Source of the DNA: a virus
Virus record (IMG/VR): IMGVR_UViG_3300045988_113183
Length of the DNA: 51,494 nt
Strand: one strand, 5' to 3'
The notes under the pieces are model-generated. The model made no database searches. It was not told where the DNA came from and saw only the letters and a list, made by a program, of their open reading frames with translations. Positions 6,669 to 40,038 of this stretch are shown piece after piece; positions within the stretch are counted from its first letter, which is position 1; the number at the start of each line of letters is the position of its first letter. A program made the translations under genes and the position numbers.

Positions 6669-8897
6669 ATGCCCCTCTTTTGGAGACGGCACGGAGAACA
6701 GGCCTCTTCCGCGTATATGAATGGCAGCGCTATGCTGCCCCGGTACACGAACCCGCCTGAGCGCAATACCGAAGATTGGATTAAGGCGTATACCACCAAT
6801 CCCCGGATGGCTGTCGTGTCCCGTATCGCGTCTGACCTGTCCTTTGCTGAGGGAAAGCTCTACCGGGTGGATAAAAACGGCGAGGAGCAAGAGCTGACGG
6901 CTCACCCTTTTCTCAATTTTTGGGAGAATCCGAACCCGTTGCACGAGTACACCAACGCTGCCCTGTGGAACCTCTTCGAGATTTACCTGAAGCTCAAGGG
7001 CGAGGGATATTTCGTCATTGAGAAGAACGCTCTCGGTGTCCCTGTTGAGTTGTGGCCTGTCCCTACTCACTGGGTACAGATGACCCCGTACATCGACCAT
7101 CCGTTCTATACCATCCGAACGACCGGCGGCCTCATTCTGGAGGTTTCTGTCGATGATATGTTCGTGATGAAAGACCTGAACCCGCTCGACCCATTCCGAC
7201 GTGGCATGGGCCAGGCAGAGCCTCTGGCTGACGAGATCGAAACAGATGAGTATGCGGCGAAGTTCCAGAAGCGGTTCTTCTTCAACGATGCCACCCCTAA
7301 CATCATCATCGGGATGCCTAAAAGCTCCGATGAGCAGCGCAAGCGGTTCCGGGCTGAGTGGATGGAGAAGTTCAGGGGCGTTTTCAACAGCCACGGCGTA
7401 GCGACTGTGAACGGCGAGGTCACCATCAACAAGGTCGGTGACAGCATGAAGGACATGGACATGGTGAATGGCCGCACCTTCCTGCGTGACGCTGTGCTGG
7501 AGCATTTTGGCGTTCCTCGTGAAATTATGGGCATTACTGAGAGCAGCAACCGGGCAACCTCGGAAGCTGCTCAGTTTATCTACGCTCAGAACGTCTTGAT
7601 GCCCAACCTGAAGCGCCGAGAACAGGCTATCAACCGCCAGCTCATCCCTCTGTTTGGAAACGACATCATCTGGCACTACGAAGATATCATCCCCCGAAAT
7701 CAGGAGTTCGACAAATCCGTGGGCACTGACGGCTGGAACGCTGGCCTGCTGACACGGAACGAAGCTCGTGAAAAACTGGGGATGCCGCCTGTCAAGAACG
7801 GCGATGTCTACAAGACACAGTTCTCTGACATCTACGTTGGAGAGGATGACGACCCCGTTGCTGTCAGTGCTGCCGCTGCTAACCTCCAGTTCGAGGATGA
7901 GGCAGACCCGCTGGAAACGGGCTCAGGCGATGATATTGAAGTCACTGATAAAGGAACACTCCCGGAGGACGAAAACGACGCTGAGAGTGCCGCAGATTCG
8001 TCTGGCGGCTTTGAAATCGTGGTTTCTAAATCTCTGAGCGGCCATGAGCGAAAGAGCGCCCAGCTTCAGGCGGCCCAACGAGCTATTGCTCAGGCTGAAC
8101 GGGAGCAGGGCCAGAAGTTCGAGATTGCTGCCATGAAATACTTCCGGCAGCAGGGCCGCCTTATCGAGAATGCCATGAACGGCACCGAAAAGGCAGAACG
8201 CAGCGCATGGGATATCCTCATGGCCGGTATTCCCGGATATGATGGACTTGCAGGAGATGAGAGCCAGAGCGCCAATGCTTCCGCATGGAATGCCCTCAGT
8301 GACGAGAACCGCACCGCCCTGCTGTCTGGATTCACCACCGGCCTTATCGACTGGCGCAGCGAGGAAACTGCCCTGCTGAACATCTTCGAGCCGCTATGGA
8401 AAGAAAGCTATAACAAGGGAGCTGGCGTGTCTGCCAAGCTCTATGGGCTGGAAAGCCTCAAGCGCCCTGAGCTGATTTCCACGGCCAAGCTCCGTGGCGG
8501 CGCTCGTGTCGTTGGTATTACGCAGACCACCAAAGATGCCATTTCCCGTATCGTCTCTGCTGCTCTGGAGCACGGAGATGGAAGGGAGAGCATCGCCAAG
8601 CAGATTCAGCAGGAGATGCAGACATCCACAACCCGCGCCCGCACCATTGCAAGCCAAGAGTGCAACACCAGCCTCCTCTCCGGCCAGTATGATATGATGC
8701 GTACCGCGGGAGCTGGCTACAAGACGTGGCACGTCACCAACCCTGCTGTTGCCCGGCCCTCGCATAAGGCCCTGAATGGACAGACCGTCCCCATCGATGC
8801 GAAGTTCGCCAATGGCTTGATGCAGCCTTGCGACCCCAACTGCGACGATGCTTCTGAGGTCGTAAATTGCCACTGTTTCCTGACGTTCAGTAAGTAG
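6669..8897 (+). CDS. Portal protein fused to a C-terminal Mu-F/SPP1 gp7-like minor head protein domain
   Basis: N-terminal ~450 aa are portal-like. An acidic linker follows. The C-terminus (TRARTIASQE ... WHVTNPAVARPSHKALNGQ ... VVNCHCFL) matches the Mu F head-morphogenesis motif pattern. Confidence 0.75.
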   Translation: MPLFWRRHGEQASSAYMNGSAMLPRYTNPPERNTEDWIKAYTTNPRMAVVSRIASDLSFAEGKLYRVDKNGEEQELTAHPFLNFWENPNPLHEYTNAALWNLFEIYLKLKGEGYFVIEKNALGVPVELWPVPTHWVQMTPYIDHPFYTIRTTGGLILEVSVDDMFVMKDLNPLDPFRRGMGQAEPLADEIETDEYAAKFQKRFFFNDATPNIIIGMPKSSDEQRKRFRAEWMEKFRGVFNSHGVATVNGEVTINKVGDSMKDMDMVNGRTFLRDAVLEHFGVPREIMGITESSNRATSEAAQFIYAQNVLMPNLKRREQAINRQLIPLFGNDIIWHYEDIIPRNQEFDKSVGTDGWNAGLLTRNEAREKLGMPPVKNGDVYKTQFSDIYVGEDDDPVAVSAAAANLQFEDEADPLETGSGDDIEVTDKGTLPEDENDAESAADSSGGFEIVVSKSLSGHERKSAQLQAAQRAIAQAEREQGQKFEIAAMKYFRQQGRLIENAMNGTEKAERSAWDILMAGIPGYDGLAGDESQSANASAWNALSDENRTALLSGFTTGLIDWRSEETALLNIFEPLWKESYNKGAGVSAKLYGLESLKRPELISTAKLRGGARVVGITQTTKDAISRIVSAALEHGDGRESIAKQIQQEMQTSTTRARTIASQECNTSLLSGQYDMMRTAGAGYKTWHVTNPAVARPSHKALNGQTVPIDAKFANGLMQPCDPNCDDASEVVNCHCFLTFSK

Positions 8898-8908
8898 GAG
8901 GCTCACCA

Positions 8909-9916
8909 ATGAGATACACCAAAGAACAGGCAGCCGCAGCCGCTCAGGCTGCTGGTATTGACCTTGAGATGGAGCGGTTCGATGCCAAAGCTCTGGCAGA
9001 TGCCATGACCGCCGAATCGGAATATTGGGCCGAAAGCTCTGATACCGATATCGCCAAAAATGACACATCCCTGACGGCGAAACTTGCGGTAGCCCACCTT
9101 CGCAAGTCGCCGTTTTATTTTGCCCCTGACCGGGGCCTGAAGGCGTGGGAGAATTCCATCAGGAAGGGGGTGAAACAGAAAAGCGTGAAAACCGAGCATA
9201 AAACCATCCGTTTCAAAGCGGACGACTTTGACGAGGAGCAGGGCATTTTCAGCGGCTATGGAGCCGTGTTCGGAAATGTTGATTCTGGCGGTGATATTAT
9301 CGAACCCGGAGCCTTCACGAAGACAATCGCCGAAGGCTGGGAGCGGGTCAAGATTCTGGCCCTGCATAACGATAGCTGGCTCCCCATCGGTAAACCGATT
9401 GAGTTGAGAGAGGACAGTAACGGCCTCTATATCAAAGCCAAAGTCTCCGACACCTCGATGGGACGTGACATCAAGGTGCTGCTGAAGGATGGCGTTCTGA
9501 ACGAGCTTTCCATTGGATACGACCCCGTGTCTTTCGACTACGACAAAGATACCGGCATCCGGCATCTGCGGGAGATCAAACTGTGGGAGGTGTCCGTCGT
9601 GACGTGGGCCATGAACCCCGAAGCGACCATCTCCGACTACAAATCTGCCAGAGACGTTGCCGACAGTGTGGGGGCTATTGTCCGGGAAGCTGCTGCCGAG
9701 GTCAAAGCTGGACGCAAAATCAGCGCCAGCCGCCTGAAGTCTCTGAAAGAGGCCAGCGCCTCCATGAAGACAGCGACCAAGGCTCTGGACACCATCATCA
9801 AGGAAGCTACGGACGGCAGCAACCAGCCCGCCGGGAAAGCTGCCAAACACGCACCGAAACCGAGGGCCACAAAGTCCACGCACGACGTTGGCCCGCTTAT
9901 CGAAATTGTTCTGTAA
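8909..9916 (+). CDS. Prohead serine protease (HK97 family) with N-terminal extension
   Basis: FSGYGAVFGNVDSGGDIIEPGAF ... LHNDSWLPIGK ... ELSIGY motifs. Lies between the portal and capsid genes. Confidence 0.85.
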   Translation: MRYTKEQAAAAAQAAGIDLEMERFDAKALADAMTAESEYWAESSDTDIAKNDTSLTAKLAVAHLRKSPFYFAPDRGLKAWENSIRKGVKQKSVKTEHKTIRFKADDFDEEQGIFSGYGAVFGNVDSGGDIIEPGAFTKTIAEGWERVKILALHNDSWLPIGKPIELREDSNGLYIKAKVSDTSMGRDIKVLLKDGVLNELSIGYDPVSFDYDKDTGIRHLREIKLWEVSVVTWAMNPEATISDYKSARDVADSVGAIVREAAAEVKAGRKISASRLKSLKEASASMKTATKALDTIIKEATDGSNQPAGKAAKHAPKPRATKSTHDVGPLIEIVL

Positions 9917-9933: not shown

Positions 9934-11511
9934 ATGAGACTGAAGAACAAAAAGTATAGCTCCCAGAAGAAGTCCGTCAAGATGACCAAGGACGACCTGA
10001 CCGAAACCATCAAGGCAGCCGTCAAGGAGGCCCTGTGCGATGATGAGGACAAGGACGATGGCGACGATGACGGCGAGGACAAGGATGACGATGATTCCGG
10101 CTCCGCTTCCGACATCTCTGACCTGATTGAACAGGCCATGGACGTTGTTGCCGAGAAGCGCAAGGCCCGTAAGGATGACGGCGAGGAGCTGGGCGATATC
10201 ACCACCGATGAGATTCTGGAGGCCATCGATGAGATTGCCGACACTGCCACCGGCGATGATGATGAGAGCAAGGATGACGACACCTCTGATTCCGAGGACA
10301 AGGACGATGAGGAGCAGGATGAGGCCAAGCGTAAGAGCCGCAAGTCCTTCTCCCGTGCCCGTCAGACCAAGAGCCGCTCTTCCATCTCTCCTGTCCAGCG
10401 CAAGTACAGTGCCCTGTATATGAGCAACTCCGCTGGCTCTGCTGGCGGCTCCAAGAAGTCTGTCCCCCCTGCCATTCAGCTGGCCCGTGCTGTCAAGTGT
10501 CTGGATGTTTTCGGCAACCGTGACCCCGAGCACGCTGCATACTGGGCGAAGAAGAAATACGGCGATGAGGATATGGCCCGCCAGTTCAAGGCCCTGTCCG
10601 CTACCAACCCCGAGACCGGCGGCTATCTGATTCCTGAGGTCTACCTCGACCAGATCGTTGAGCTGCTGTACTCCAAGACCGTCATCTTCGAGCTGGGTGC
10701 TCAGAAGGTTCCCATGCCCACCGGCAACCTGAACATTCCCAAGATGACCTCCGGCGCTCGTGCTACTTGGGGCGGTGAAGCTCGCAAGATTGCCACCTCT
10801 CAGCCTACCTTCGGCAGCATCAAGCTGTCTGCAAAGCGTCTGGAGGCTATTGTTCCCCAGACCCGTGAACTGCTGATGAGCTCCAGCTACTCCGCGGACC
10901 AGATGTTCGCCAACGACCTGACCCGCCGCATGGAGCTGGGCATTGACTTCGGCGGTATGTTTGGCTCTGGCAACGAGTTCCAGCCCCTCGGCGTGTTCCG
11001 CGATAAGGACATCGCTCATCTGGATGCCAAGGTGCTGAACAACCCCGACCTGGCAGATGCCAACGGCAAGATCACTGCCGACTTCCCCGTGTTCCTGCGT
11101 TCTGAGCTGATGAGCAAGAACGTTGATGACGCAGCTGCAGGCTGGGCCATGAACTCTATGCTCGAAGGCTATTTCATGAACATGAAAACCACCACCGGCG
11201 AGTACCTGTACCGTGATGAGATGTACACCGGCAAGCTGCTGGGCTTCAACTACAAGGTCAGCAACCAGATTCCCACCGACAAGAACGGCCTGACTGAGCT
11301 GTGCTTCGGTAACTGGAGCGACCTGCTGGTTGGCGAGCAGCTGGGTCTGGAGACCTACACTACCCTCGACGGTGTCTGGACTGACGATAATGGTGTGCAG
11401 CACAGCGCATTCGACGAGAACCTCGCCGCTACCCGTGCCCTGATGTACGTCGATATCGCAGCTCGCCACAAAGAGAGCTTCATCCATGTTAAGAACATCA
11501 AGGTGAAGTGA
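9934..11511 (+). CDS. Major capsid protein (HK97 fold) with ~170-aa acidic N-terminal scaffold-like region
   Basis: AGGAGG RBS upstream of ATG 9934. D/E-rich low-complexity region. Then GGYLIPEVYLDQIVELLY ... capsid-family sequence. Confidence 0.85.
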   Translation: MRLKNKKYSSQKKSVKMTKDDLTETIKAAVKEALCDDEDKDDGDDDGEDKDDDDSGSASDISDLIEQAMDVVAEKRKARKDDGEELGDITTDEILEAIDEIADTATGDDDESKDDDTSDSEDKDDEEQDEAKRKSRKSFSRARQTKSRSSISPVQRKYSALYMSNSAGSAGGSKKSVPPAIQLARAVKCLDVFGNRDPEHAAYWAKKKYGDEDMARQFKALSATNPETGGYLIPEVYLDQIVELLYSKTVIFELGAQKVPMPTGNLNIPKMTSGARATWGGEARKIATSQPTFGSIKLSAKRLEAIVPQTRELLMSSSYSADQMFANDLTRRMELGIDFGGMFGSGNEFQPLGVFRDKDIAHLDAKVLNNPDLADANGKITADFPVFLRSELMSKNVDDAAAGWAMNSMLEGYFMNMKTTTGEYLYRDEMYTGKLLGFNYKVSNQIPTDKNGLTELCFGNWSDLLVGEQLGLETYTTLDGVWTDDNGVQHSAFDENLAATRALMYVDIAARHKESFIHVKNIKVK

Positions 11512-15474: not shown

Positions 15475-15891
15475 ATGGCTGCAAGCATTGAAGTTGCTTC
15501 CTACGACCCCAAAAAGGTCAACGTCATCGTGGGTGGCCGCATCATCACCGGCTTTGCTTCTGACGGTGTTGTGACCCTGACCAAGAACGAAGACAGCGTT
15601 ACCCCCAGCGTTGGTGCAAAGGGCGACGTGACCTACTCTGAGAACGCCAACGAGAGCGGTACCGTGGCCGTCACCCTCATGTCTACCTCTTCCAGCCTCT
15701 CTTATCTGCGCGGGCTGGAAGCCCGCCGCCGTGCTGTGAATGTTACCATCAGCGATGTGAACTCCAGCGACGGCTTCGTTATGAGCGAGGGCAATTGCCG
15801 CATTATGAAGATGCCGGACGCTGCCCGCCAGAAAACTGAGGGCAGCGTCACCGTGAACATCTATGTTCCGAGCATGACCGTCCACCAGTAA
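15475..15891 (+). CDS. Tail tube protein (DUF3277-like)
   Basis: 138 aa. YDPKKVNVIVGG ... G ... DG motif. Follows the sheath gene. Confidence 0.65.
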   Translation: MAASIEVASYDPKKVNVIVGGRIITGFASDGVVTLTKNEDSVTPSVGAKGDVTYSENANESGTVAVTLMSTSSSLSYLRGLEARRRAVNVTISDVNSSDGFVMSEGNCRIMKMPDAARQKTEGSVTVNIYVPSMTVHQ

Positions 15892-15960
15892 GCTGCTGTG
15901 CGGTACAATCACTGGCCTGAGAGGCCGAAATCTTTGACGGAAAGAGGTTATAGAAAGTTT

Positions 15961-16230
15961 ATGGCAAAACAGAAGAAAGTGACCGTCGAGGGCGTGGAGT
16001 ACACCCTGCAGAGTGTTTCCCCTTCGTGGTATTTTCAGGTGAACGACGAGTGCGGTATGACCACTGACAACCGCCGTGACACCGCCAAGTATCTGGACAC
16101 TATGTTCAAGAACGTCGTTGTGGCCCCTGTTGAGGTTGGCAAAGACGGCATGACCTACTTCGATGAGAATGAGGACGTGAAGACCCCGGAGAAGCTCATC
16201 AAGGTCATCGAGCGGTTTCTGCGCGAGTGA
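15961..16230 (+). CDS. Tail assembly chaperone
   Basis: Small acidic ORF between the tube and tape-measure genes. Confidence 0.6.
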   Translation: MAKQKKVTVEGVEYTLQSVSPSWYFQVNDECGMTTDNRRDTAKYLDTMFKNVVVAPVEVGKDGMTYFDENEDVKTPEKLIKVIERFLRE

Positions 16231-23675: not shown

Positions 23676-24971
23676 ATGTCCAAATACCAAGACGGCAATT
23701 ACGGCACTCTGGCTGGCATTGCCCTTATCGGCAAAGTGCTGGCCGGGCGCTGCACCCTGAAGTACACCAAGGCTACTGTCGGCAAGGGCAGTATCCCTGA
23801 CGGTAAGACACCCAAAACCATGGACGGCTCTGCTGAGTATGTTATGGATGTTCCCATCTCTGGCATTACCAACCCCGTGGACGGTGAATGTCAGGTATCC
23901 GTGCAAATCAGCAGCGCCAGCGTCACCACCGGCTTTTATTGCACCAATGTTGTGCTGTATGCCCAAGACCCTGATTCGGGAGAAATCCCCTTCACTTACC
24001 TTGTGATGGAGAACGAACCTGAATGGATTCATCCTTCGTCCTCTTCTGTCGGCAAACTGGCCGCCATTGACCTTATCTCGGCGGTTGGTGACGTAGACCA
24101 TGTGGAGGCAACCATCGACGAAGATACCATTGCCACTGTGGCCGTGGTAAATCAGGCTGTGAATGACCTGAAGAACAAAACCCTTCCGCTTGCTGGTGGC
24201 ACATTGACTGGCCCTCTGATTCTGGCAGACGGCTACAATGCCTATGGTGTTGCCAGCAATGCTGCTGCGCACAATGCTATGCCGCCCCGCTTTAAGAATC
24301 TCGGCACAGCGGCAACCTCTGACATCCACGCGGCTATCAAGGCTGGCACATTCGACGATATCTTTGTCGGCGATTATTTTATGGTGGGTGACAACCCGAT
24401 TTACATCGGTGCCCTCGACTGGTACCTGAACTGCGGCGACACGAGCTGCACCGAGCATCATGCCCTGCTCGTACCCGGTAACAATCTGTACACCTACCAC
24501 ATGAATGCCACCAATACGACTGAGGGCGGTTACGTTGGCAGTGATATGTATAAGAACGGTCTGACGCAGGCAAAGCAGTTTTTCAGCGACGCGTTCGGGG
24601 CGGCCCATATTTTGTCCCATCGGCAGTATCTGGTGAACGCTGTTTCTGGCGGCAAGCCTACTGGAACGGACTGGTTCGACAGCACGGTGGAGCTGATGAA
24701 TGAAAACATGGTTTATGGCGGGCGGCAATTCTCGCCCATGCCGGACGGCGCAACTGAACCGTGGAGCACCTGCAGGAACTACACCATCGATAAGGGCCAA
24801 ATTCCTTTGTTCCAGTATGCCCCGTGGCTGATTTGCAACCGTAACTGGTACTGGCTGCGAGACGTGGTCTCGGCGGCCAGTTTTGCCAATGTCGGCGACG
24901 GCGGCTATGCGGACTGCGGCGGCGCTTCCGACGTCGCTGGCGTTCGGCCTGTCGCCGGTCTGATCGGTTAA
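23676..24971 (+). CDS. Tail fibre protein; C-terminal lectin-fold-like variable domain is DGR target 1
   Basis: Tail-collar-like N-terminus. The C-terminus (WYWLRDVVSAASFANVGDGGYADCGGASDVAGVRPVAGLIG) contains VR1. Confidence 0.85.
   Translation: MSKYQDGNYGTLAGIALIGKVLAGRCTLKYTKATVGKGSIPDGKTPKTMDGSAEYVMDVPISGITNPVDGECQVSVQISSASVTTGFYCTNVVLYAQDPDSGEIPFTYLVMENEPEWIHPSSSSVGKLAAIDLISAVGDVDHVEATIDEDTIATVAVVNQAVNDLKNKTLPLAGGTLTGPLILADGYNAYGVASNAAAHNAMPPRFKNLGTAATSDIHAAIKAGTFDDIFVGDYFMVGDNPIYIGALDWYLNCGDTSCTEHHALLVPGNNLYTYHMNATNTTEGGYVGSDMYKNGLTQAKQFFSDAFGAAHILSHRQYLVNAVSGGKPTGTDWFDSTVELMNENMVYGGRQFSPMPDGATEPWSTCRNYTIDKGQIPLFQYAPWLICNRNWYWLRDVVSAASFANVGDGGYADCGGASDVAGVRPVAGLIG
24863..24961 (+). repeat. 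DGR variable repeat VR1
   Basis: 99-nt gapless alignment to TR. All 16 differences are at TR adenines. Confidence 0.9.
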
Positions 24972-24977
24972 TCGAAC

Positions 24978-25002
24978 ATCCTGCGGGCCTGTACCGCAGG
25001 AT
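24978..25002 (+). promoter_or_regulatory. Hairpin 17 nt downstream of VR1 (candidate DGR target-recognition element)
   Basis: 9-bp stem ATCCTGCGG/CCGCAGGAT with loop GCCTGTA. Confidence 0.6.
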
Positions 25003-25026: not shown

Positions 25027-25575
25027 ATGTCCATCCCGAAGCATGAACGTTCCCCTTCCAGACTGGAAGCGCAGCATCTTGCCCGGAAAATCAGCTTGGA
25101 AATAACGTCCGAGCTTGCGAGGACGTTCGGCTACAGCAAGGCAAAATTTGAGAAGCACGTCGAAACTATGACGAAATACCTACCTCCCGGCCCGGACAGG
25201 GAATCTGCTGCACAGCAGATTCGGGAGCAGGAACAGGGATTCAACTTGTGGCTGATTGAGCAGGAACGCCGGAGAATGCTTGACTTATCACGCGAAATCC
25301 CACTCCATCTTCGTGCGGCAAATTCCATTTGGCCCAGTTGCCAGATGGAGCTTGATGCACGAAGGCTGGAGCTTGACCGCGCCGTTGCTGCCTGCTGGAA
25401 ATTGCAGGACGAACTCCAGTATATTGCTGAAGCTCTTCCGGCTGATTTCAACAAATATACCGGCCTTGCCTTGGAAATTGACAAGCTCGTTTCGTATATT
25501 AAAAATTTACGAAAATCCGACAGCAAGAGATTCAAGGCTGCTTCCGAAAACAAATCCGCAAAAAGTACGAAATAA
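25027..25575 (+). CDS. avd: Avd-like accessory variability determinant (helical bundle protein)
   Basis: Basic, helical ORF between the target gene and TR, which is the canonical Avd position. At 183 aa it is longer than a typical Avd. Confidence 0.6.
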   Translation: MSIPKHERSPSRLEAQHLARKISLEITSELARTFGYSKAKFEKHVETMTKYLPPGPDRESAAQQIREQEQGFNLWLIEQERRRMLDLSREIPLHLRAANSIWPSCQMELDARRLELDRAVAACWKLQDELQYIAEALPADFNKYTGLALEIDKLVSYIKNLRKSDSKRFKAASENKSAKSTK

Positions 25576-25598
25576 TAAACAATTGGGCATCCTTTGTT

Positions 25599-25697
25599 CG
25601 TGGTCTCGACGGCCAATTTTGCCAATGTCAACGACAACGGCAATGCGAACTACAACAACGCTTCCAACGTCAATGGCGTTCGGCCTGTCGCCGGTCT
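25599..25697 (+). repeat. DGR template repeat (TR)
   Basis: Non-coding copy containing 23 adenines, mostly in AAC/AAT triplets. In the VR frame it reads VVSTANFANVNDNGNANYNNASNVNGVRPVAGL. Confidence 0.9.
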
Positions 25698-25860
25698 CTG
25701 ATTTCGCAACTGTACATAAAAGGATTGGTTCCGAGTACAGCTCTGCGAAAGGAAAGGCTGTCCATTCATGGAGATTCCATGATAAACGCCCCTTGAGGGC
25801 ATCAACGGCGATGTTCCCGGTTACGACCGATGGAGCTATCACGCTGTTTTTTCTTTTGCT

Positions 25861-27093
25861 ATGACAAAATTGACCGATGCAAATGTGCTGTATGATGCAG
25901 GATTTAAGGCAATGAAGCCTTCTTACTACAAATACGGCACTCAACTGTATGAAATGAACCATCTTCTCGAAACGGCAAGGCTTCAGAAAGCTTTCCTTGA
26001 GGGGAGCTACGAGCCGCAACCCGGCGTTAAATTTGAGATTAAGGAAAGAGGGCACGAAAGGTATATCACCAGCACTGAGACCGCTGACAAGGCGGTTTCT
26101 CATATCATCTGTGATGAGTATCATACGCCCCTGCTGGGCCGGTATCTCCAGTATGATAACTCGGCCAGCCAGAAAGGCAAAGGCGTTGCTTTTCACCGTC
26201 ACCGATTTAAGGTTCACCTGCGGCAGTATTATGAGCGTGAAGGAACGAACGAGGGCTTTATTTTATTCTCGGACTTCAGCGGGTATTATGCCAACATTCT
26301 GCATGAGGTAACGCTTTCCCGGCTGGAAAAGTATCTCACGAAAGAGATACCCGACCGTGTGGAGCTTGCTCAGGTGTTGGATGTCCTGCGTAAAACCTTC
26401 AAGAGCTATGAGCTGGACGTATCTCGGTTCTCGGATTCTGAAATCGAGCAGATGTACCGAGAAAAAATCAGCTCCACTTTTAATGTCGGCGTACCGTCCT
26501 CCGTCCTGACCGGCGAAAAGATGCTGCGCAAGGGAGTTGATATCGGCAATCAGATCTCTCAGAACGTTGGCATCTTCCTGCCCGTCCCTCTGGATAACTA
26601 TGTCAAAATCGTCTGTGGTATCAAGGGATACGCCCGATATTCAGATGACTTTTATGCCATTGCCCGGACAAAGGAAGAGCTACACGAGGTTATGGATGGG
26701 GTACGCCGGGAAGCCGCTGCACTGGGCCTTATCATCAACGAAAAGAAAACCCGTATCTGCAAACTTGGCAGCCAGTACCGCCACCTGCAGATGCTCTATT
26801 CCCTGAAGCCTGACGGCGAGATTACCTGCAAAATTAACCCAAAGTCTATCACTCGTGAGCGCCGGAAACTGAAAGCATACAAAAGGCTGCTGGATGCTGG
26901 CCGGATGGAGTATGCCGAAATCGAGAACAATTTTAAGTCGTGGATTTGCACCTACTATCGGTTCATGTCCCTGCTGCAAATCCAAAACATGATTGCTCTG
27001 TACAAGGAGCTATTCGGAAAGGATATCACATGGAAAAAGTCACGAGGACATGGTCGGTTACGCTGGCTGATGGCACAGCCATTGAAAACCTGA
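25861..27093 (+). CDS. DGR reverse transcriptase
   Basis: DIGNQISQ (the DGR-type IGxxxSQ motif) and GYARYSDDF (YxDD box). Lies ~160 nt downstream of TR. Confidence 0.9.
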   Translation: MTKLTDANVLYDAGFKAMKPSYYKYGTQLYEMNHLLETARLQKAFLEGSYEPQPGVKFEIKERGHERYITSTETADKAVSHIICDEYHTPLLGRYLQYDNSASQKGKGVAFHRHRFKVHLRQYYEREGTNEGFILFSDFSGYYANILHEVTLSRLEKYLTKEIPDRVELAQVLDVLRKTFKSYELDVSRFSDSEIEQMYREKISSTFNVGVPSSVLTGEKMLRKGVDIGNQISQNVGIFLPVPLDNYVKIVCGIKGYARYSDDFYAIARTKEELHEVMDGVRREAAALGLIINEKKTRICKLGSQYRHLQMLYSLKPDGEITCKINPKSITRERRKLKAYKRLLDAGRMEYAEIENNFKSWICTYYRFMSLLQIQNMIALYKELFGKDITWKKSRGHGRLRWLMAQPLKT

Positions 27094-30625: not shown

Positions 30626-31049
30626 AGCACGGCCAACCTCCTCTCCTATCCTTATAAAAATAGTATGCCTGTCTGACGTACTCCTCCGTGGTGTCCAGCT
30701 CCTCTGCTATCTCCCAAGCGTCAAGGCCCTGCTGGAGCAGTGACATCAGCTTACCCTCTGGTATCGCATGAAGTATATACCAATGGTCGGCCCTGACCTC
30801 ATGCCGTTCCATGAGATCGTAGGGCGTGGCGCGTGTGTAGAACCCTCCATATAGACAATGGCCCAGCTCGTGCCCAAGGCGGGCGGCCTCCTCTGCATGC
30901 GTTAGCTTCCGGCTGCTGTCGATGCCGATATAGCATTTTCCGCCCTGCTCGATGCTGATGCTGCCTGTTTCCGGCAGCGGGAAGCTGAGCACCTCTATTC
31001 CGCTTTTCTCTGCTGTGTCGTAAAGCTCACTTACTCTGTCCATTCGCAT
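30468..31049 (-). CDS. ImmA/IrrE-family zinc metalloprotease (anti-repressor protease)
   Basis: HELGHCLY (HEXXH) motif. Start overlaps the repressor gene. The ORF runs 158 nt into the integrase gene. Confidence 0.8.
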   Translation of the reverse strand: MRMDRVSELYDTAEKSGIEVLSFPLPETGSISIEQGGKCYIGIDSSRKLTHAEEAARLGHELGHCLYGGFYTRATPYDLMERHEVRADHWYILHAIPEGKLMSLLQQGLDAWEIAEELDTTEEYVRQAYYFYKDRRGGWPCCEKENGNRNVERGRGTLANQSPEEWNAKMLLQQHAGQNWPERSKRQSRCVVG

Positions 31050-31686
31050 CCCGCTCCTTTATAAAACGAGCGAAGTTCTTGACCTCCTCGAACTGAGCGT
31101 CTGTCACATCGCCACCCCCGAAGAGCGCGAACTTCAAATCTTCATCCGTAACGCCTCGGCTGCTGTCTGCTGCCGGGGCGTTTTCTTTTTCCTGCTGCTG
31201 TGCTGTCCCTCGCTCCTCTGGAGCTGTTGGGTCATCTGTTTCGCCATTCAGGTATGCCGCACTGGTATGCAACTCTCTAGCCCAGACTTCCAAAATTTCA
31301 GGCTTGACCTTTTTCGTTTTTCGCAAGTTGCTGCCGGCCTTTGGAGACATCCCGACCATCGTATAAAGATGAGCCTGTTTCACTCCTGCTTCTTTGCTCA
31401 GATCATAAAACCTCTGAAACTGAAACTTTCCGTATTCTACCGTTGTCGCTATGTCCATCTTTCCTTTATCTTGGCTTTCTACTCGGCCATTTATGTACTC
31501 TGCTGATGTTCCCAAAATCTTCGCTATTGCAGGGAGGTACTGAGACGGTACATCTGCATTCCGGCCTGAAATCTCTGAGAGGTATCCGCTGCTTTTGCCG
31601 AGCTTCTTGCTGATGAAAGCCAACGTCATTCCTCGTTCGTTCGCTAGTTCGCGGATTTTTGAAATGTTTCCAGACGACTTTTCCAT
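31027..31686 (-). CDS. CI-like repressor with two XRE-type HTH domains
   Basis: Two HTH_3-like segments (MTLAFISKKLGKSSGYLSEI; KQAHLYTMVGMSPKAGSNL). Divergent from the early genes. Confidence 0.8.
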   Translation of the reverse strand: MEKSSGNISKIRELANERGMTLAFISKKLGKSSGYLSEISGRNADVPSQYLPAIAKILGTSAEYINGRVESQDKGKMDIATTVEYGKFQFQRFYDLSKEAGVKQAHLYTMVGMSPKAGSNLRKTKKVKPEILEVWARELHTSAAYLNGETDDPTAPEERGTAQQQEKENAPAADSSRGVTDEDLKFALFGGGDVTDAQFEEVKNFARFIKERDANGQSK

Positions 31687-31713: not shown

Positions 31714-31775
31714 CCAGAAAAATACGAAAAAAGTCCAGAAAAAGTATTTACAACTCTGCGGTAAAGTAGTATAAT
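31714..31775 (+). promoter_or_regulatory. Early rightward promoter P1 with upstream repeat block
   Basis: TTTACA (31747-52), 17-nt spacer, TATAAT (31770-75). CCAGAAAAA is repeated 21 nt apart. The block is duplicated at 38767-38828. Confidence 0.65.
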
Positions 31776-34109: not shown

Positions 34110-35029
34110 GCTATGAGATCAATGAAGAGATGGCCCGGCGGGCGCACGAGATGCGCTCTTTCGGGGACTATGTACCCGGCAAGGCCACAGCTGAGTACGA
34201 GCGGCAGGTCGGCCGGGCACGGGAAGTGGCCGAACAGGCCAAGGCCCGGTGCAAGACCACCGCCCAGCGCAACCGGGTGGATGGGATGCTTGACAAGTAC
34301 GAGCGCACCCTTGCTTTTGCTATCAACCGGGAGAACGAAATCGGGACGTGGTGCGAAAGTATGATGATTTCCGGCGGCTCCAATTTCCCTGTCAAGAAAA
34401 AGGAACGGCAGGTTGCCGCATGGGATGCCAACCGAGCTAACTTCTTACAGGCGGATGAGCTACTGGAGAAGATTCGGGGCTACGGTTATACTGCCCCTAT
34501 CAGCAGCAGCGACCCTGAGGCCCTCAAAGCCCTACGGGAGAAGCTGGGGCGAGAGCAGGACTATCACTCCCACATGATTGCCGTCAACAAGTATTTCCGG
34601 GACTATGGAACCGTCGAGGGCTGCGAGGGCGTTGGCGACTATGAGCTTTCTGCGATTCAGGCCCGTATGAAGCAGTGGGGAGACCGCAAGCCTTTTCTGT
34701 CGTGGCAGTTGAGCAATTCCAACCGGCGCATCCGCCAGATTGAGGCTCGTATCAAGGAGATGGAAGCCGCAGCCGAATCTAATGCCCAGCCCGTTGAGCT
34801 GGTGGAGCTTCCCGGCATTACTTACCACGAGAATAGCTCCACCATGCGGGTGCAGCTCATCTTTGAGGGAAAGCCTGAGCCTGACATCCGGGCCATTCTG
34901 AAGTCTCACGCCTTCAAGTGGTGCCCTTCTCAGGGTGCATGGCAGCGGCAGCTCACGGCGAATGGCAAGCGGGCCGCGCGTGAGGTTCTGGCCCAGATTC
35001 GGATGCTCCAGAATGGAGGTACTGCTTGA
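34106..35029 (+). CDS. DUF3560-like protein
   Basis: The C-terminus (FEGKPEPDIRAILKSHAFKWCPSQGAWQRQLTANG) is the typical DUF3560 signature as I recall it. Confidence 0.55.
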   Translation: MSYEINEEMARRAHEMRSFGDYVPGKATAEYERQVGRAREVAEQAKARCKTTAQRNRVDGMLDKYERTLAFAINRENEIGTWCESMMISGGSNFPVKKKERQVAAWDANRANFLQADELLEKIRGYGYTAPISSSDPEALKALREKLGREQDYHSHMIAVNKYFRDYGTVEGCEGVGDYELSAIQARMKQWGDRKPFLSWQLSNSNRRIRQIEARIKEMEAAAESNAQPVELVELPGITYHENSSTMRVQLIFEGKPEPDIRAILKSHAFKWCPSQGAWQRQLTANGKRAAREVLAQIRMLQNGGTA

Positions 35030-35232
35030 TGGATATTCTGGATATTTTGATAGCTGGGATGCCGAAGGCCCCATCTGATGCCTGCGATTTCTGGCAGGAT
35101 GGCGAAGAAGTTTTCTGCCGTACTGAAGAGCAGGCAAATGCCATAGCGGAGCTTTTCGTAAAGCTGCTGCCTGACAGCACGGTAGTTGTCACCCTGCTTG
35201 AAGAAATCGGCTGGTATTGCGTCAACGTCTAA
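35026..35232 (+). CDS. Hypothetical acidic 68-aa protein
   Basis: ATGATGG overlap with the upstream gene. Lies upstream of the MazF-like gene. Confidence 0.6.
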   Translation: MMDILDILIAGMPKAPSDACDFWQDGEEVFCRTEEQANAIAELFVKLLPDSTVVVTLLEEIGWYCVNV

Positions 35233-35285
35233 AAATAAGCGTCCCTGCGTTAGGGACCACTTGAATTTTGAAGGGAGATTTTTAC

Positions 35286-35894
35286 ATGAACGGTATGTTT
35301 TTTCGCGGTGAGGTTTATTATGTTCTGCCTACTGGCAAGGAGGCTGGATGCGAGCAGCACGGTGGCCGCCCGGCTGTCATCGTGAGCAATAACCAGAACA
35401 ACAAGAACTCCTCCACTCTGGAGATCGTTTACCTGACAACTCAGGAAAAGAAGCCTCTTCCCACTCATGTTCATATCAATGCTGCTGGGAAGCTGAAAGA
35501 ATCCACGGCCATCTGCGAGCAGGTGCTCACTGTGGACAAAACCCGGATGGATGAGTATATTGGGGTGCTGTGTGACAAGGAGATGCGGGACATCGAGTTT
35601 GGCCTGATGGTCAGTCTTGGTCTCGACAACTACCTCTCCAAGCCGAAAGAAGTTCCCGGAAGCGACATCACTATTGGCTCTGTGGCCGTTTCCATTCCAT
35701 CGCCGGTTCCCTCTGCCAATAGTTTTGCTGAAGTTGCTGCATCGAAAGTGGCCGAGAATACCCCCGTTCAGGCTCCAGCCTCTGCACCTTCTGTTCCCGG
35801 CAGAAGCTTTGAAAAAGAGTTCATCTCAGCTTGCGCACAGCGTGATGTTTACCGGGAGCTGTGCATGAAGATGATCGAGCAGCGGAGGGCGTGA
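35286..35894 (+). CDS. MazF/PemK-like toxin domain with ~95-aa C-terminal extension
   Basis: GEVYYV ... EQHGGRPAVIVSNN ... LTTQEKKPLPTHV ... EQVLTVDKTR is the PemK-type motif pattern. The extension is P/S/A-rich and ends in a helical tail. Confidence 0.7.
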   Translation: MNGMFFRGEVYYVLPTGKEAGCEQHGGRPAVIVSNNQNNKNSSTLEIVYLTTQEKKPLPTHVHINAAGKLKESTAICEQVLTVDKTRMDEYIGVLCDKEMRDIEFGLMVSLGLDNYLSKPKEVPGSDITIGSVAVSIPSPVPSANSFAEVAASKVAENTPVQAPASAPSVPGRSFEKEFISACAQRDVYRELCMKMIEQRRA

Positions 35895-35895
35895 G

Positions 35896-36090
35896 ATGAT
35901 TATGGAAACCCTGAAAAAGGCTCTCGCCGCTGCCGGCGCGTACCTGTGTATGCTTGGCCTGCTGAAGGCTGCAATGCATACCAACTATGCAATCCAGAAG
36001 AAAGACGGCAGACGCATGGCCGTATCCATGTCGGCAATGGCCCTGCTGTTTTTCCTGCTGTTTCTGCTGGTTCCTGTTGTGGGAGGTTGA
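35896..36090 (+). CDS. Small membrane protein (2 TM)
   Basis: Two hydrophobic stretches. Confidence 0.6.
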   Translation: MIMETLKKALAAAGAYLCMLGLLKAAMHTNYAIQKKDGRRMAVSMSAMALLFFLLFLLVPVVGG

Positions 36091-36093
36091 ACG

Positions 36094-36291
36094 ATGGCAA
36101 AGTCCGAATTGAAACCCTGTCCGTTCTGCGGAGGCTCTGCCAGAATCCTGAGGCTCAAAGGTGGCAGCTATTGCGCTGCCTGTTCTGGATGTGGTGCAAG
36201 AAGCCGCTCATTCTATGTTCAGCCATGGCACGATAACAAGTCCGTTGCTCAGTGTCAGGCTGCCAAGCTCTGGAACACAAGAACCGATTGA
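36094..36291 (+). CDS. lar: Lar-family restriction alleviation protein
   Basis: CPFCGG ... CxxC zinc-ribbon pattern and ~65 aa, typical of the Lar family. Confidence 0.6.
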   Translation: MAKSELKPCPFCGGSARILRLKGGSYCAACSGCGARSRSFYVQPWHDNKSVAQCQAAKLWNTRTD

Positions 36292-36335: not shown

Positions 36336-36974
36336 ATGAAAGTAAGAAGAACTGAAAAAATCAAGACCAACACCTTCCGTGAGGGCGACATCATCAAGTT
36401 TAAGCTGGCCGATGGCGAGAAGGTCAAAATGCTGGCTGTCAAGAGTGAGCTGGACGGTATGGTTTTCTGCTCTGTGGACTGTCTGAAAGCCGAGTACTGC
36501 ATGAACCCTACCGGCACGAACGCCGGAGGCTGGGCTGATTCTGAGCTTCGGAAGAAGCTGAACAGTGAGATTCTGGAGCGCTTCCCGAAGAAAATCAAAA
36601 AGCTGCTGGTTCCGTTCGAGAACGGCGACCTGCTCCGCATCCCTACTGAGAAGGAAATCTTCGACAGGAATCCCTACGGCGAGGACGAGCCTGAAGCTGT
36701 GGAGCAGTGGAGGGCGATGAAGCAGCGCAAGAACCGCATCGCCTCGCAGGGGCTGAACGGAGGCTGGGAGTGGTATTGGCTCCAGAATCCGGCTGGCAAC
36801 TCGCCGGCCTTTTTCGCCCTTGTCAACGCCCTCGGCTGTGCGGGCTACGGCGACGCTTCCGACGTCTGTGGCGTTCGGCCTGTCGCCAAAATCAAAAATC
36901 AGACATCTGCACCTGCCTGTCAGGTGCAGGAAGATGACAGCCCTTTCGGGGAAATCGAGGATGCTGAACAGTGA
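36336..36974 (+). CDS. Second DGR target protein (lectin-fold-like variable C-terminal region, DUF6273-like), non-structural
   Basis: GGWADSELRKKLN ... WEWYWLQNPAG ... FFALVNALGCAGYGDASDVCGVRPVA contains VR2. No signal peptide seen. Confidence 0.8.
   Translation: MKVRRTEKIKTNTFREGDIIKFKLADGEKVKMLAVKSELDGMVFCSVDCLKAEYCMNPTGTNAGGWADSELRKKLNSEILERFPKKIKKLLVPFENGDLLRIPTEKEIFDRNPYGEDEPEAVEQWRAMKQRKNRIASQGLNGGWEWYWLQNPAGNSPAFFALVNALGCAGYGDASDVCGVRPVAKIKNQTSAPACQVQEDDSPFGEIEDAEQ
36800..36887 (+). repeat. DGR variable repeat VR2 (remote)
   Basis: 88-nt gapless alignment to TR 25605-25692. 18 of the 19 differences are at TR adenines. Confidence 0.85.
36907..36929 (+). promoter_or_regulatory. Hairpin 20 nt downstream of VR2 (candidate DGR target-recognition element)
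   Basis: 8-bp stem CTGCACCT/AGGTGCAG with loop GCCTGTC, nearly the same loop as the VR1 hairpin. Confidence 0.6.
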
Positions 36975-37363: not shown

Positions 37364-37693
37364 ATGAAAAAGAGATTCTCTTGTTTTGCTGTGGCCGTTA
37401 TGCTGCTGACCCTGACAACGCTCTGGGTTACGGCCTGTGGTTCCACCTCTGCTGAGGCTGGAACTGCTGACCACCCCTGTTACCACGTCACCGTCTATTC
37501 TCCTGCCATTGAAGATGGAACATACGCAGCCCGGCGATATCCGAAGTATACCATCACCGTGGATGACTTCGGTGAGCTGCTGCCTGAACCGAAGCTATCT
37601 GCTGAGCGTGAGTATCGGCTGCTCCGTATCCCTCTGGAAGATGGCCGCTTTGAGCTGGTGTCCACCTCTCTGGTGGAAATCGAGTATTACTGA
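37364..37693 (+). CDS. Lipoprotein (possible superinfection-exclusion factor)
   Basis: Signal peptide MKKRFSCFAVAVMLLTLTTLWVTAC with a lipobox-like VTAC. Confidence 0.65.
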   Translation: MKKRFSCFAVAVMLLTLTTLWVTACGSTSAEAGTADHPCYHVTVYSPAIEDGTYAARRYPKYTITVDDFGELLPEPKLSAEREYRLLRIPLEDGRFELVSTSLVEIEYY

Positions 37694-37705: not shown

Positions 37706-37738
37706 GCCCTCTGCTCTACCTGAGCAGGGGGCATTTTG
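37706..37738 (+). terminator. Rho-independent terminator
   Basis: 11-bp stem GCCCTCTGCTC/GAGCAGGGGGC followed by ATTTTG. Confidence 0.7.
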
Positions 37739-37792: not shown

Positions 37793-37821
37793 TTGACAAA
37801 AATATTATTTTAGTCTATAAT
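37793..37821 (+). promoter_or_regulatory. Perfect consensus sigma-70 promoter
   Basis: TTGACA, 17-nt spacer, TATAAT, in an AT-rich context. Confidence 0.7.
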
Positions 37822-39738: not shown

Positions 39739-40038
39739 ATGCGTAGGTTTATGCGGAAGATCGAATGTCTGGCTGTGGCCTCTCTGGCTCTGGTCGGAGC
39801 CGGTCAGGTCGTGGTCTGGATGTCCCAAGGAGTTACAAAAGCTCTGGTTGCGTGGGGCAACTGGGAAGCCGCCGAGGCTTCCAGTGCTGCACCGTGGATT
39901 CTGTTTGCGGTTGCAAGTGGTCTGGCCCTTTCCCTGCATGGCCTGTATGAGGACAACAAGCGGCATACAAAGGGCAGCCCCTATGGGCGTATTGAGAACA
40001 GCCGTTCTCGCCGCGATGAGAGCCGGAAGGTGGGCTGA
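39739..40038 (+). CDS. Membrane protein
   Basis: Two hydrophobic segments. AGGAGG RBS. Confidence 0.6.
   Translation: MRRFMRKIECLAVASLALVGAGQVVVWMSQGVTKALVAWGNWEAAEASSAAPWILFAVASGLALSLHGLYEDNKRHTKGSPYGRIENSRSRRDESRKVG

Follow-up and report, generated by a model that had tools for sequence, protein, structure and literature searches.

A single-domain DUF6273 protein in the early region of a phage genome as a probable second, remote target of a diversity-generating retroelement

Diversity-generating retroelements (DGRs) are the only known natural system for targeted protein hypermutation in prokaryotes, and in phages their presence is normally explained by receptor switching. The window analysed here, a stretch of 51,494 nucleotides of viral DNA (IMG/VR virus record IMGVR_UViG_3300045988_113183), contains a DGR with a variable repeat (VR1) in a tail-fibre gene. 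An original prediction, made from the letters of the sequence, proposed a second variable repeat (VR2) in a small gene located far from the template repeat (TR) and apart from the structural genes. The locus raises the question of whether one TR serves two targets and, if so, which role a hypervariable protein encoded among early genes might play. The argument is based on the following elements of the window:

23676-24971, plus strand: tail-fibre gene carrying VR1, 431 amino acids (aa), with a match of its N-terminal part to the tail-fibre family phrog_7037
24862-24962, plus strand: VR1, with 16 mismatches to the TR, each on a TR adenine
25027-25575, plus strand: Avd-like accessory gene, 182 aa, recognised by its position and by similarity to open reading frames (ORFs) of the phages Fontainebleau and Shimadzu
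25598-25698, plus strand: TR, situated in the non-coding interval that separates the accessory gene from the reverse transcriptase (RT) gene
25861-27093, plus strand: DGR RT gene, 410 aa, with matches to RVT_1 and phrog_1423 and the motifs IGNQISQ and YSDD
36336-36974, plus strand: VR2 host gene, encoding a single-domain DUF6273 protein of 212 aa (PF19789, phrog_21980, AlphaFold2 (AF2) model and Foldseek)
36800-36887, plus strand: VR2, encoding approximately residues 155-184 of the host protein

A scripted alignment of TR positions 25605-25692 with VR2 extends over 88 nt with 0 gaps and reproduces all 19 differences on which the original prediction was built, including the 18 that coincide with TR adenines and the only exception, T25620>C36815, which proves to be a synonymous third-position change (TTT>TTC). 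The aligned TR segment contains 23 adenines, of which 18 are changed and five (25630, 25631, 25652, 25658 and 25667) are identical in VR2. The hypergeometric probability for at least 18 of 19 mismatches to fall on 23 adenines among 88 positions is 2.5e-13, which confirms their concentration on TR adenines. The substitutions in VR2 comprise 8 A>G, 6 A>T and 4 A>C changes, while 14 of the 16 differences in VR1 are A>G. As the two patterns differ, the repeats were rewritten independently, and the proposed existence of a second, remote target of one TR, diversified separately from VR1, is thereby borne out. We hold with considerable confidence that 36800-36887 constitutes a functional second variable repeat of the single DGR of this phage and that its host ORF is a DGR target. 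Scanning the whole window (same strand) and the TR region (both strands) revealed no third VR. The predominance of A>G in VR1 compared to the mixed spectrum of VR2 might be due to selection on the fibre or to a small number of homing events.

The resemblance between VR2 and the TR might, in principle, merely reflect common descent with the fibre tip after a gene duplication, with no DGR targeting involved. Both proteins are indeed related. BLASTP aligns the VR2 protein with residues 274-429 of the fibre (29% identity over 158 aa, E 1e-7), the alignment reaches well past the VR, and the C-terminal ca. 160 aa of the fibre are DUF6273-like; judged by sequence comparison, the VR2 protein is a stand-alone paralogue of this tip, devoid of the N-terminal shaft of the fibre. 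However, differences arising by ordinary divergence would not fall on TR adenines in 18 of 19 cases and spare synonymous sites at other bases, and the DNA of the VR is identical at 64 of 65 non-A positions although the proteins share only 29% identity outside the VR. Shared ancestry as the sole explanation has practically no probability and was rejected on the basis of the adenine-specific mismatches together with the restriction of sequence entropy to those positions that are adenine in the TR (TR-A positions, see below).

A DGR target should also be recognisable to the homing machinery by the DNA at its 3′ end, where the following elements are found in the window:

36870-36887, plus strand: GC-rich 3′ block GGCGTTCGGCCTGTCGCC, resembling the initiation-of-mutagenic-homing (IMH) element and identical in TR, VR1 and VR2
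36907-36929, plus strand: hairpin 3′ of VR2, CTGCACCTG-CCTGT-CAGGTGCAG, with a 9-bp stem (DNA fold z = -3.0)
24978-25002, plus strand: hairpin 3′ of VR1, with a 9-bp stem and the loop GCCTGTA (DNA fold z = -3.1)

VR2 is positioned at the 3′ end of its ORF and terminates with the GC-rich block, an 18-nt sequence which is exact in all three copies and behind which the sequences diverge; the hairpin follows after a spacing of 19 nt for VR2 and 21 nt for VR1. In 13 diverse relatives the stem of the VR2 hairpin exhibits compensatory changes at 5 of 9 pairs, 95.7% of the alignment cells are paired compared to ca. 40% when the partner strand is slid, and the loop is constant (C[CT]TGT). This combination of a stem that varies with its pairing kept and a constant loop fits the rule established for phage BPP-1, according to which the structure of the stem matters but not its sequence, while the loop is sequence-specific (PMC3240598, Guo et al. 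2011). Comparable hairpins are located 3′ of both VRs in Shimadzu and Fontainebleau. In the window, unlike in Shimadzu, the ORF reads through the hairpin, continuing for 29 codons past the VR (36888-36974) and encoding the segment SAPACQV in a tail of low model confidence. As the hairpin lies 3′ of the stop codon in several relatives, it represents a DNA element rather than a requirement of the protein, and the near-invariance of SAPACQV in the disordered tail is probably caused by a constraint on DNA structure. By analogy, we propose that the GC-rich block and the hairpin form a target-recognition element belonging to VR2 itself, to which the similar hairpin at VR1 would correspond.

The diversification of VR2 was analysed among its homologues. 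A search with the VR2 protein yielded 928 relatives, the full library consisting of 957 representatives at 50% identity. In the window protein and 120 homologues the entropy amounts to 2.72 bits at the 13 TR-A codons, compared to 0.56 bits at the other TR codons and 0.44 bits elsewhere. The seven closest sequences (87-100% identity) display on average 4.5 distinct residues at TR-A codons versus 1.2-1.26 elsewhere, and the homologue P0001 differs from the window protein at 18 residues, 11 of which are situated within the 13 TR-A codons. A TR search in 77 homologous loci (designated by L numbers) revealed both TR and VR2 only in L060, L065 and L015/L034. Since most TRs lie beyond the 10-kb flank, the TR-based statistics on the DNA level were derived from a related lineage of 72% identity, judged against its own TR (that of L015). 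In 24 unique sequences of this lineage the entropy is 1.51 bits at TR-A positions, 0.13 bits at TR non-A positions, 0.12 bits outside the VR and 0.25 bits at third codon positions. The repeat is diversified on the level of both lineage and family, and the pattern is the textbook signature of a DGR on a scaffold under purifying selection. A further observation concerns the 5′ border of the repeat: residues 154-157 of P0001 read VVST as in the TR translation, where the window protein (36795-36806) has GNSP. This protein-level difference suggests a longer complementary DNA (cDNA) tract in the lineage of P0001 and, hence, a variable 5′ retrohoming junction.

VR2 might nevertheless be a relic, i.e. 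a former target which is no longer diversified in this genome. Frozen copies do exist, as in the homologous lineages L070-L104 on large contigs the VRs are nearly fixed and the hairpin is absent. The copy in the window, in contrast, retains an intact GC-rich block and hairpin, RT and TR are intact, and the relatives with 87-92% identity differ chiefly at TR-A codons. The constellation of a fixed VR2 beside a varying VR1, by which the original prediction would have recognised a relic, was not seen on the lineage level, where the TR-A codons are hypervariable. We consider this explanation very improbable. The viral contigs L070-L088 (40-270 kb) carry 2-3 paralogous small DUF6273 genes within ca. 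7 kb (in L070, for example, at 8665-9234, 10001-10573 and 15497-16066), whose VR-like regions are nearly fixed across contigs and devoid of a downstream hairpin; these genes may be frozen copies without a DGR. A link between hairpin absence and frozen VRs in L070-L104 is only suggestive, the sets being nearly clonal.

The cassette supplying the template contains an RT of the DGR type. The [I/L]GxxxSQ motif is the signature of DGR RTs, for which YxDD is likewise taken, and the window RT carries both and is placed next to the TR, which lies upstream with 163 nt between the TR end and the RT start. A stem-loop at 25702-25750 between TR and RT start (CGCAACTGTAC...GTACAGCTCTGCG, z = -2.1) might be part of the 3′ structure of the TR RNA. 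The Avd-like ORF shares 56% identity with the equivalent ORF of Fontainebleau and weak similarity with the annotated Avd of Shimadzu (29% over 91 aa, pairwise E 8e-6); searches in Pfam, PHROG and PDB sequences yielded no match for it.

The VR2 host gene starts with ATG at 36336, preceded by an AAAGGA ribosome-binding site. Its product matches PF19789 (DUF6273) with 29.6 bits, above the gathering cut-off of 23.5, with an aligned span restricted to residues 59-95, and phrog_21980 with E 3.5e-21; precomputed PF19789 matches are present on nearly all of its homologues. The AF2 model, calculated from an alignment of 81 sequences, consists of one globular domain with a mean predicted local distance difference test score (pLDDT) of 92.2, followed after residue 190 by a C-terminal tail with a pLDDT of ca. 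50. The diversified residues (157-178) reside on a β-hairpin formed by strands 159-163 and 169-173, with ca. 11-13 diversified positions. The top match of Foldseek in the PDB is 9qa6, an IgA peptidase of Thomasclavelia (E 9e-5), the N-terminal domain of which is a DUF6273 domain (PMC12402451); the C-terminal domain of Legionella Lcl ranks second. Among the entries of BFVD, DUF6273 phage proteins were matched with E values down to 1e-12 and TM scores up to 0.7, including tail-collar fibres and receptor-binding proteins. The VR2 protein shares the fold common to known DUF6273 domains, which is regarded as a variant of the C-type lectin fold in the literature. In the comparison with C-type-lectin and formylglycine-generating-enzyme folds suggested in the original prediction, the match was to the DUF6273 fold, and canonical C-type lectins appeared in the PDB as weak matches.

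The VR2 protein contains neither a signal peptide nor a membrane segment, the maximum of the Kyte-Doolittle plot over 19-residue windows being 1.1. The predicted absence of a signal peptide from the 212-aa ORF therefore stands, its N-terminus not being hydrophobic. A signal-peptide-like N-terminus was also not found in 37 N-terminally extended relatives. The N-terminal extensions of relatives are hydrophilic, and those of P0147, P0196, P0257 and P0270 contain paired CxxC motifs reminiscent of zinc ribbons.

Small remote DGR targets of this kind have been described before. The same genome organisation occurs in phage Shimadzu, in which both VRs diversify in culture and in mice (Cornuault et al., 10.1101/575076; GenBank LR596903). 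Shimadzu and the window share the order of tail fibre (431 aa, with VR1), Avd, TR, RT, lysis genes, integrase, repressor and early genes. Its orf43, a hypothetical protein of ca. 209 aa with a 3′-terminal VR2 13.9 kb from the TR, is homologous to the VR2 protein (34.7% identity, E 2e-15) and is encoded between methyltransferases and the recombination/replication genes Erf, SSB and Rep, a location comparable to that in the window. The window phage hence corresponds to Shimadzu in the homology to orf43, the 3′-terminal VR, the early/replication module and the position of VR1 in a fibre upstream of Avd-TR-RT, and differs in its RT (29% identity), the host (Roseburia for Shimadzu) and the GC content.

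The closest isolate is the Acutalibacter phage Fontainebleau (ON453893, L107 in our set), with 54% identity in the RT, 42.5% in the small protein and 56% in the Avd-like protein. It contains a TR at 35099-35196, VR1 in a tail gene (34384-34454) and VR2 at 9798-9891, 25 kb away from the TR. This VR2 belongs to a DUF6273 gene of 189 aa that is flanked by those of DNA polymerase I and a helicase. Neither a DGR, an RT nor a second VR is named in the publication on Fontainebleau. In contrast to the window, its genome is of the siphovirus type with a PolA replication module.

Small DUF6273 proteins as second targets are also known from the Faecalibacterium phages Lelie and CP11 (PMC11792537) and from Toutatisvirus, where the gene belongs to the core genome and lies 17.5 kb from the TR (10.1101/2024.10.15.618418). 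The Faecalibacterium phages resemble the window in having one TR, two DUF6273 targets with the VR at the C-terminus of the domain, and a remote small target. In these phages, however, the large target is a head-decoration protein (Hoc-like/tentaclin) encoded downstream of the RT, whereas that of the window is a tail fibre upstream of Avd; their RT is ca. 26% identical to that of the window, and their small targets were not detected by tblastn at E 1e-5. The target tgt2 of nd4/nd12, the second one of a single TR, is a globular DUF6273-only protein of 234-294 aa whose 3′-end VR forms a surface β-hairpin on a C-lectin-like domain (PMC10743442). The VR2 protein agrees with tgt2 in domain composition, in the 3′-end VR on a β-hairpin and in being the second target of one TR, despite low sequence similarity and a different partner, which in nd4/nd12 is a tentaclin with an N-terminal VR.

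The classical system of BPP-1 shares with the window one TR, adenine mutagenesis, a 3′-end VR in a binding protein of the C-lectin type and a GC-rich IMH followed by a hairpin, but it has a single target adjacent to the DGR. Its target Mtd uses an N-terminal β-prism and a β-sandwich for attachment to the fibre as a trimer; the VR2 protein, in contrast, is predicted by AF2 as a single globular domain with a disordered tail and thus does not belong to the Mtd family. No Mtd chains occur among the top 50 Foldseek matches in the PDB. Roux et al. divide viral DGR targets into ‘structural’ and ‘unknown’ (PMC8144416). The novelty implied by the original prediction was accordingly overstated, as orf43 of Shimadzu, at the same genomic position, was already published and shown experimentally to diversify (10.1101/575076), and the small second targets of Lelie, CP11, Toutatis and nd4/nd12 are also on record. 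The window phage is a further instance of a published class of small, remote DGR targets.

The genomic surroundings of the VR2 gene are defined by the following features:

31027-31686, minus strand: repressor gene, divergent from the early operon
31747-31775, plus strand: promoter-like site (11/12) at the head of the early operon, from a consensus scan only
35268-35894, plus strand: MazF/PemK-like gene, upstream neighbour in the operon (PF02452, E 1e-20; phrog_1936)
35896-36090, plus strand: gene of a 64-aa membrane protein, neighbour of the VR2 gene
36094-36291, plus strand: gene similar to the restriction-alleviation gene Lar, immediate upstream neighbour (PF14354, E 1.3e-11)
37364-37693, plus strand: last gene of the operon, encoding a predicted lipoprotein with a signal peptide and a lipobox ending in VTAC, from sequence inspection
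37706-37732, plus strand: terminator-like stem-loop ending the operon of the VR2 gene, from a consensus scan only
37793-37821, plus strand: promoter match (12/12) after the terminator, from a consensus scan only

In the window the structural genes are followed by the DGR region (fibre with VR1, Avd-like gene, TR and RT), endolysin and holin, integrase and repressor on the minus strand, and the early operon. The rightward operon contains a primase-like gene, the MazF-like gene, the small membrane protein, Lar, the VR2 gene, a 125-aa ORF, the start of which overlaps the VR2 gene stop, and the lipoprotein; RecT, SSB and a DnaD-like loader are encoded beyond the terminator-like site. The location outside the structural module, in an early operon together with replication and accessory genes, and the identity of the neighbours therefore agree with the original prediction. 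Related loci offer a similar picture. In 11 further diverse loci the commonest neighbours of the small gene are primase, methyltransferases, regulators, Rep, polymerase, HD phosphohydrolase and peptidase, with no head or tail families among the top 25 neighbour families, and in prophage L001 it follows a methylase and a 3D-domain protein. None of the immediate neighbours or potential partner genes is conserved across the loci compared; L001/L034 have a 3D-domain hydrolase upstream, Shimadzu has a methyltransferase, Fontainebleau PolA and the window Lar.

On this basis we tentatively regard the VR2 protein as a soluble binding module that is unattached to the virion and whose ligand differs from that of the fibre, the latter because VR1 and VR2 diversify independently. 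A non-virion role is favoured by the early/replication position of the gene in unrelated backbones, by the lack of an anchoring domain and by the hydrophilic, partly zinc-ribbon-like N-terminal extensions. Several points weigh against the explanation as a whole, the DGR-target part included. Incorporation into the virion would be compatible with the data; elsewhere, DUF6273 domains form part of tail fibres, tentaclins and bacterial surface proteins. The evidence for diversification refers to the lineage level, from which the present activity of the DGR in this genome is extrapolated, and early expression is deduced from gene order and consensus matches to promoters and terminators. The accessory gene appears Avd-like without a family match and with weak similarity to its Shimadzu counterpart. 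Finally, L004 and L017, with RTs 84% and 70% identical to that of the window, contain no DUF6273 gene of the small type where synteny would place it within the 10-kb flank, and the gene is thus not universal. As the close DGR relative L015 contains the small gene at exactly the spacing of the window and, hence, the two-target layout, the second target has apparently been gained or lost among close relatives. The terms ‘intracellular’ and ‘non-structural’ of the original prediction are plausible and draw solely on the position of the gene, since virion proteins also lack signal peptides and DUF6273 forms the fibre tip of the phage itself.

Possible, albeit doubtful, is a function in the virion as an additional protein for receptor binding or adhesion, either Mtd-like or decorating, which would be synthesised in the cytoplasm and join the tail or baseplate in spite of its gene lying in the early region. 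An extracellular role of this type would comply with the general logic of phage DGRs and represents the default reading of the literature, in which receptor binding was proposed (PMC10743442; 10.1101/2024.10.15.618418). Moreover, the own fibre tip is built from the same domain, the structural neighbours in BFVD comprise tail-collar fibre and receptor-binding proteins, and a signal peptide is normally not found in virion proteins. It is less easily reconciled with a single compact domain that lacks the shaft or anchor of the fibre, with N-terminal extensions of relatives that are hydrophilic and in some cases zinc-ribbon-like rather than fibre-like, and with the location of the gene in replication/DNA-modification modules in Shimadzu, Fontainebleau, L001 and the 11 loci, never beside head or tail genes. 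The soluble, unanchored module, which we prefer, includes a more specific case, namely that the small DUF6273 proteins are cytoplasmic, early-expressed hypervariable binders of a host factor or an anti-phage defence protein. The early-operon position beside Lar, the MazF-like gene and other accessory genes, the replication-module context conserved across loci and the absence of an export signal in the window protein and the 37 extended relatives are consistent with such a function. We nevertheless judge it rather unlikely, as the ligands of known DGR targets of the DUF6273 and C-lectin types are extracellular, and position alone does not specify localisation. A receptor-masking or decoy role mimicking the specificity of the fibre was likewise considered unlikely in view of the independent diversification and the sequence differences of VR1 and VR2.

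The window adds a clear case in which one TR serves two proteins, a tail fibre and a small protein of lectin fold encoded in a replication/accessory module, and according to the metagenomic data diversification of the small target is no less vigorous than that of tail-fibre targets. The papers on the small DUF6273 targets of Shimadzu, the Faecalibacterium phages and nd4/nd12 report their existence and do not establish function or localisation. If the protein were indeed a cytoplasmic binder, phages would possess a DGR-generated repertoire directed against a host factor or defence protein, which would also explain the constant context of replication, DNA modification and anti-restriction in unrelated backbones and the zinc-ribbon-like N-termini. 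As Shimadzu and Fontainebleau are cultured, inducible and of the same layout, the role of the unanchored hypervariable domain is directly testable.

We propose a first scenario for the operation of the system: The TR RNA would be reverse-transcribed with adenine-specific errors, and the resulting cDNA would replace either VR1 in the fibre tip or VR2, in separate events. Each target would be recognised via the common GC-rich 3′ block and its own downstream DNA hairpin, the stem of which would be free to vary, in contrast to the constant loop C[CT]TGT. The host of VR2, presumably a C-type-lectin-like binding protein of the DUF6273 family, would be transcribed together with the early replication and accessory genes.

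Megablast found no counterpart of the VR2 region or of the DGR cassette among 50,697 phage records, and the phage is therefore without a close sequenced isolate. Relatives of 49-56% identity were found on bacterial genome contigs of Moryella, Dorea, a Faecalibacterium metagenome-assembled genome (MAG) and a Clostridiales MAG, and the host is probably a gut bacterium of the Clostridia. The MazF/PemK-like protein consists of a toxin domain (residues 13-115) and a Pro/Ala/Ser-rich C-terminal extension of ca. 90 aa, with no obvious antitoxin gene adjacent to 35268-35894. A further small membrane protein is encoded at 39739-40038 in the early region; together with 35896-36090, 36094-36291 and 37364-37693 it looks like a cluster of moron/accessory genes around the VR2 gene.

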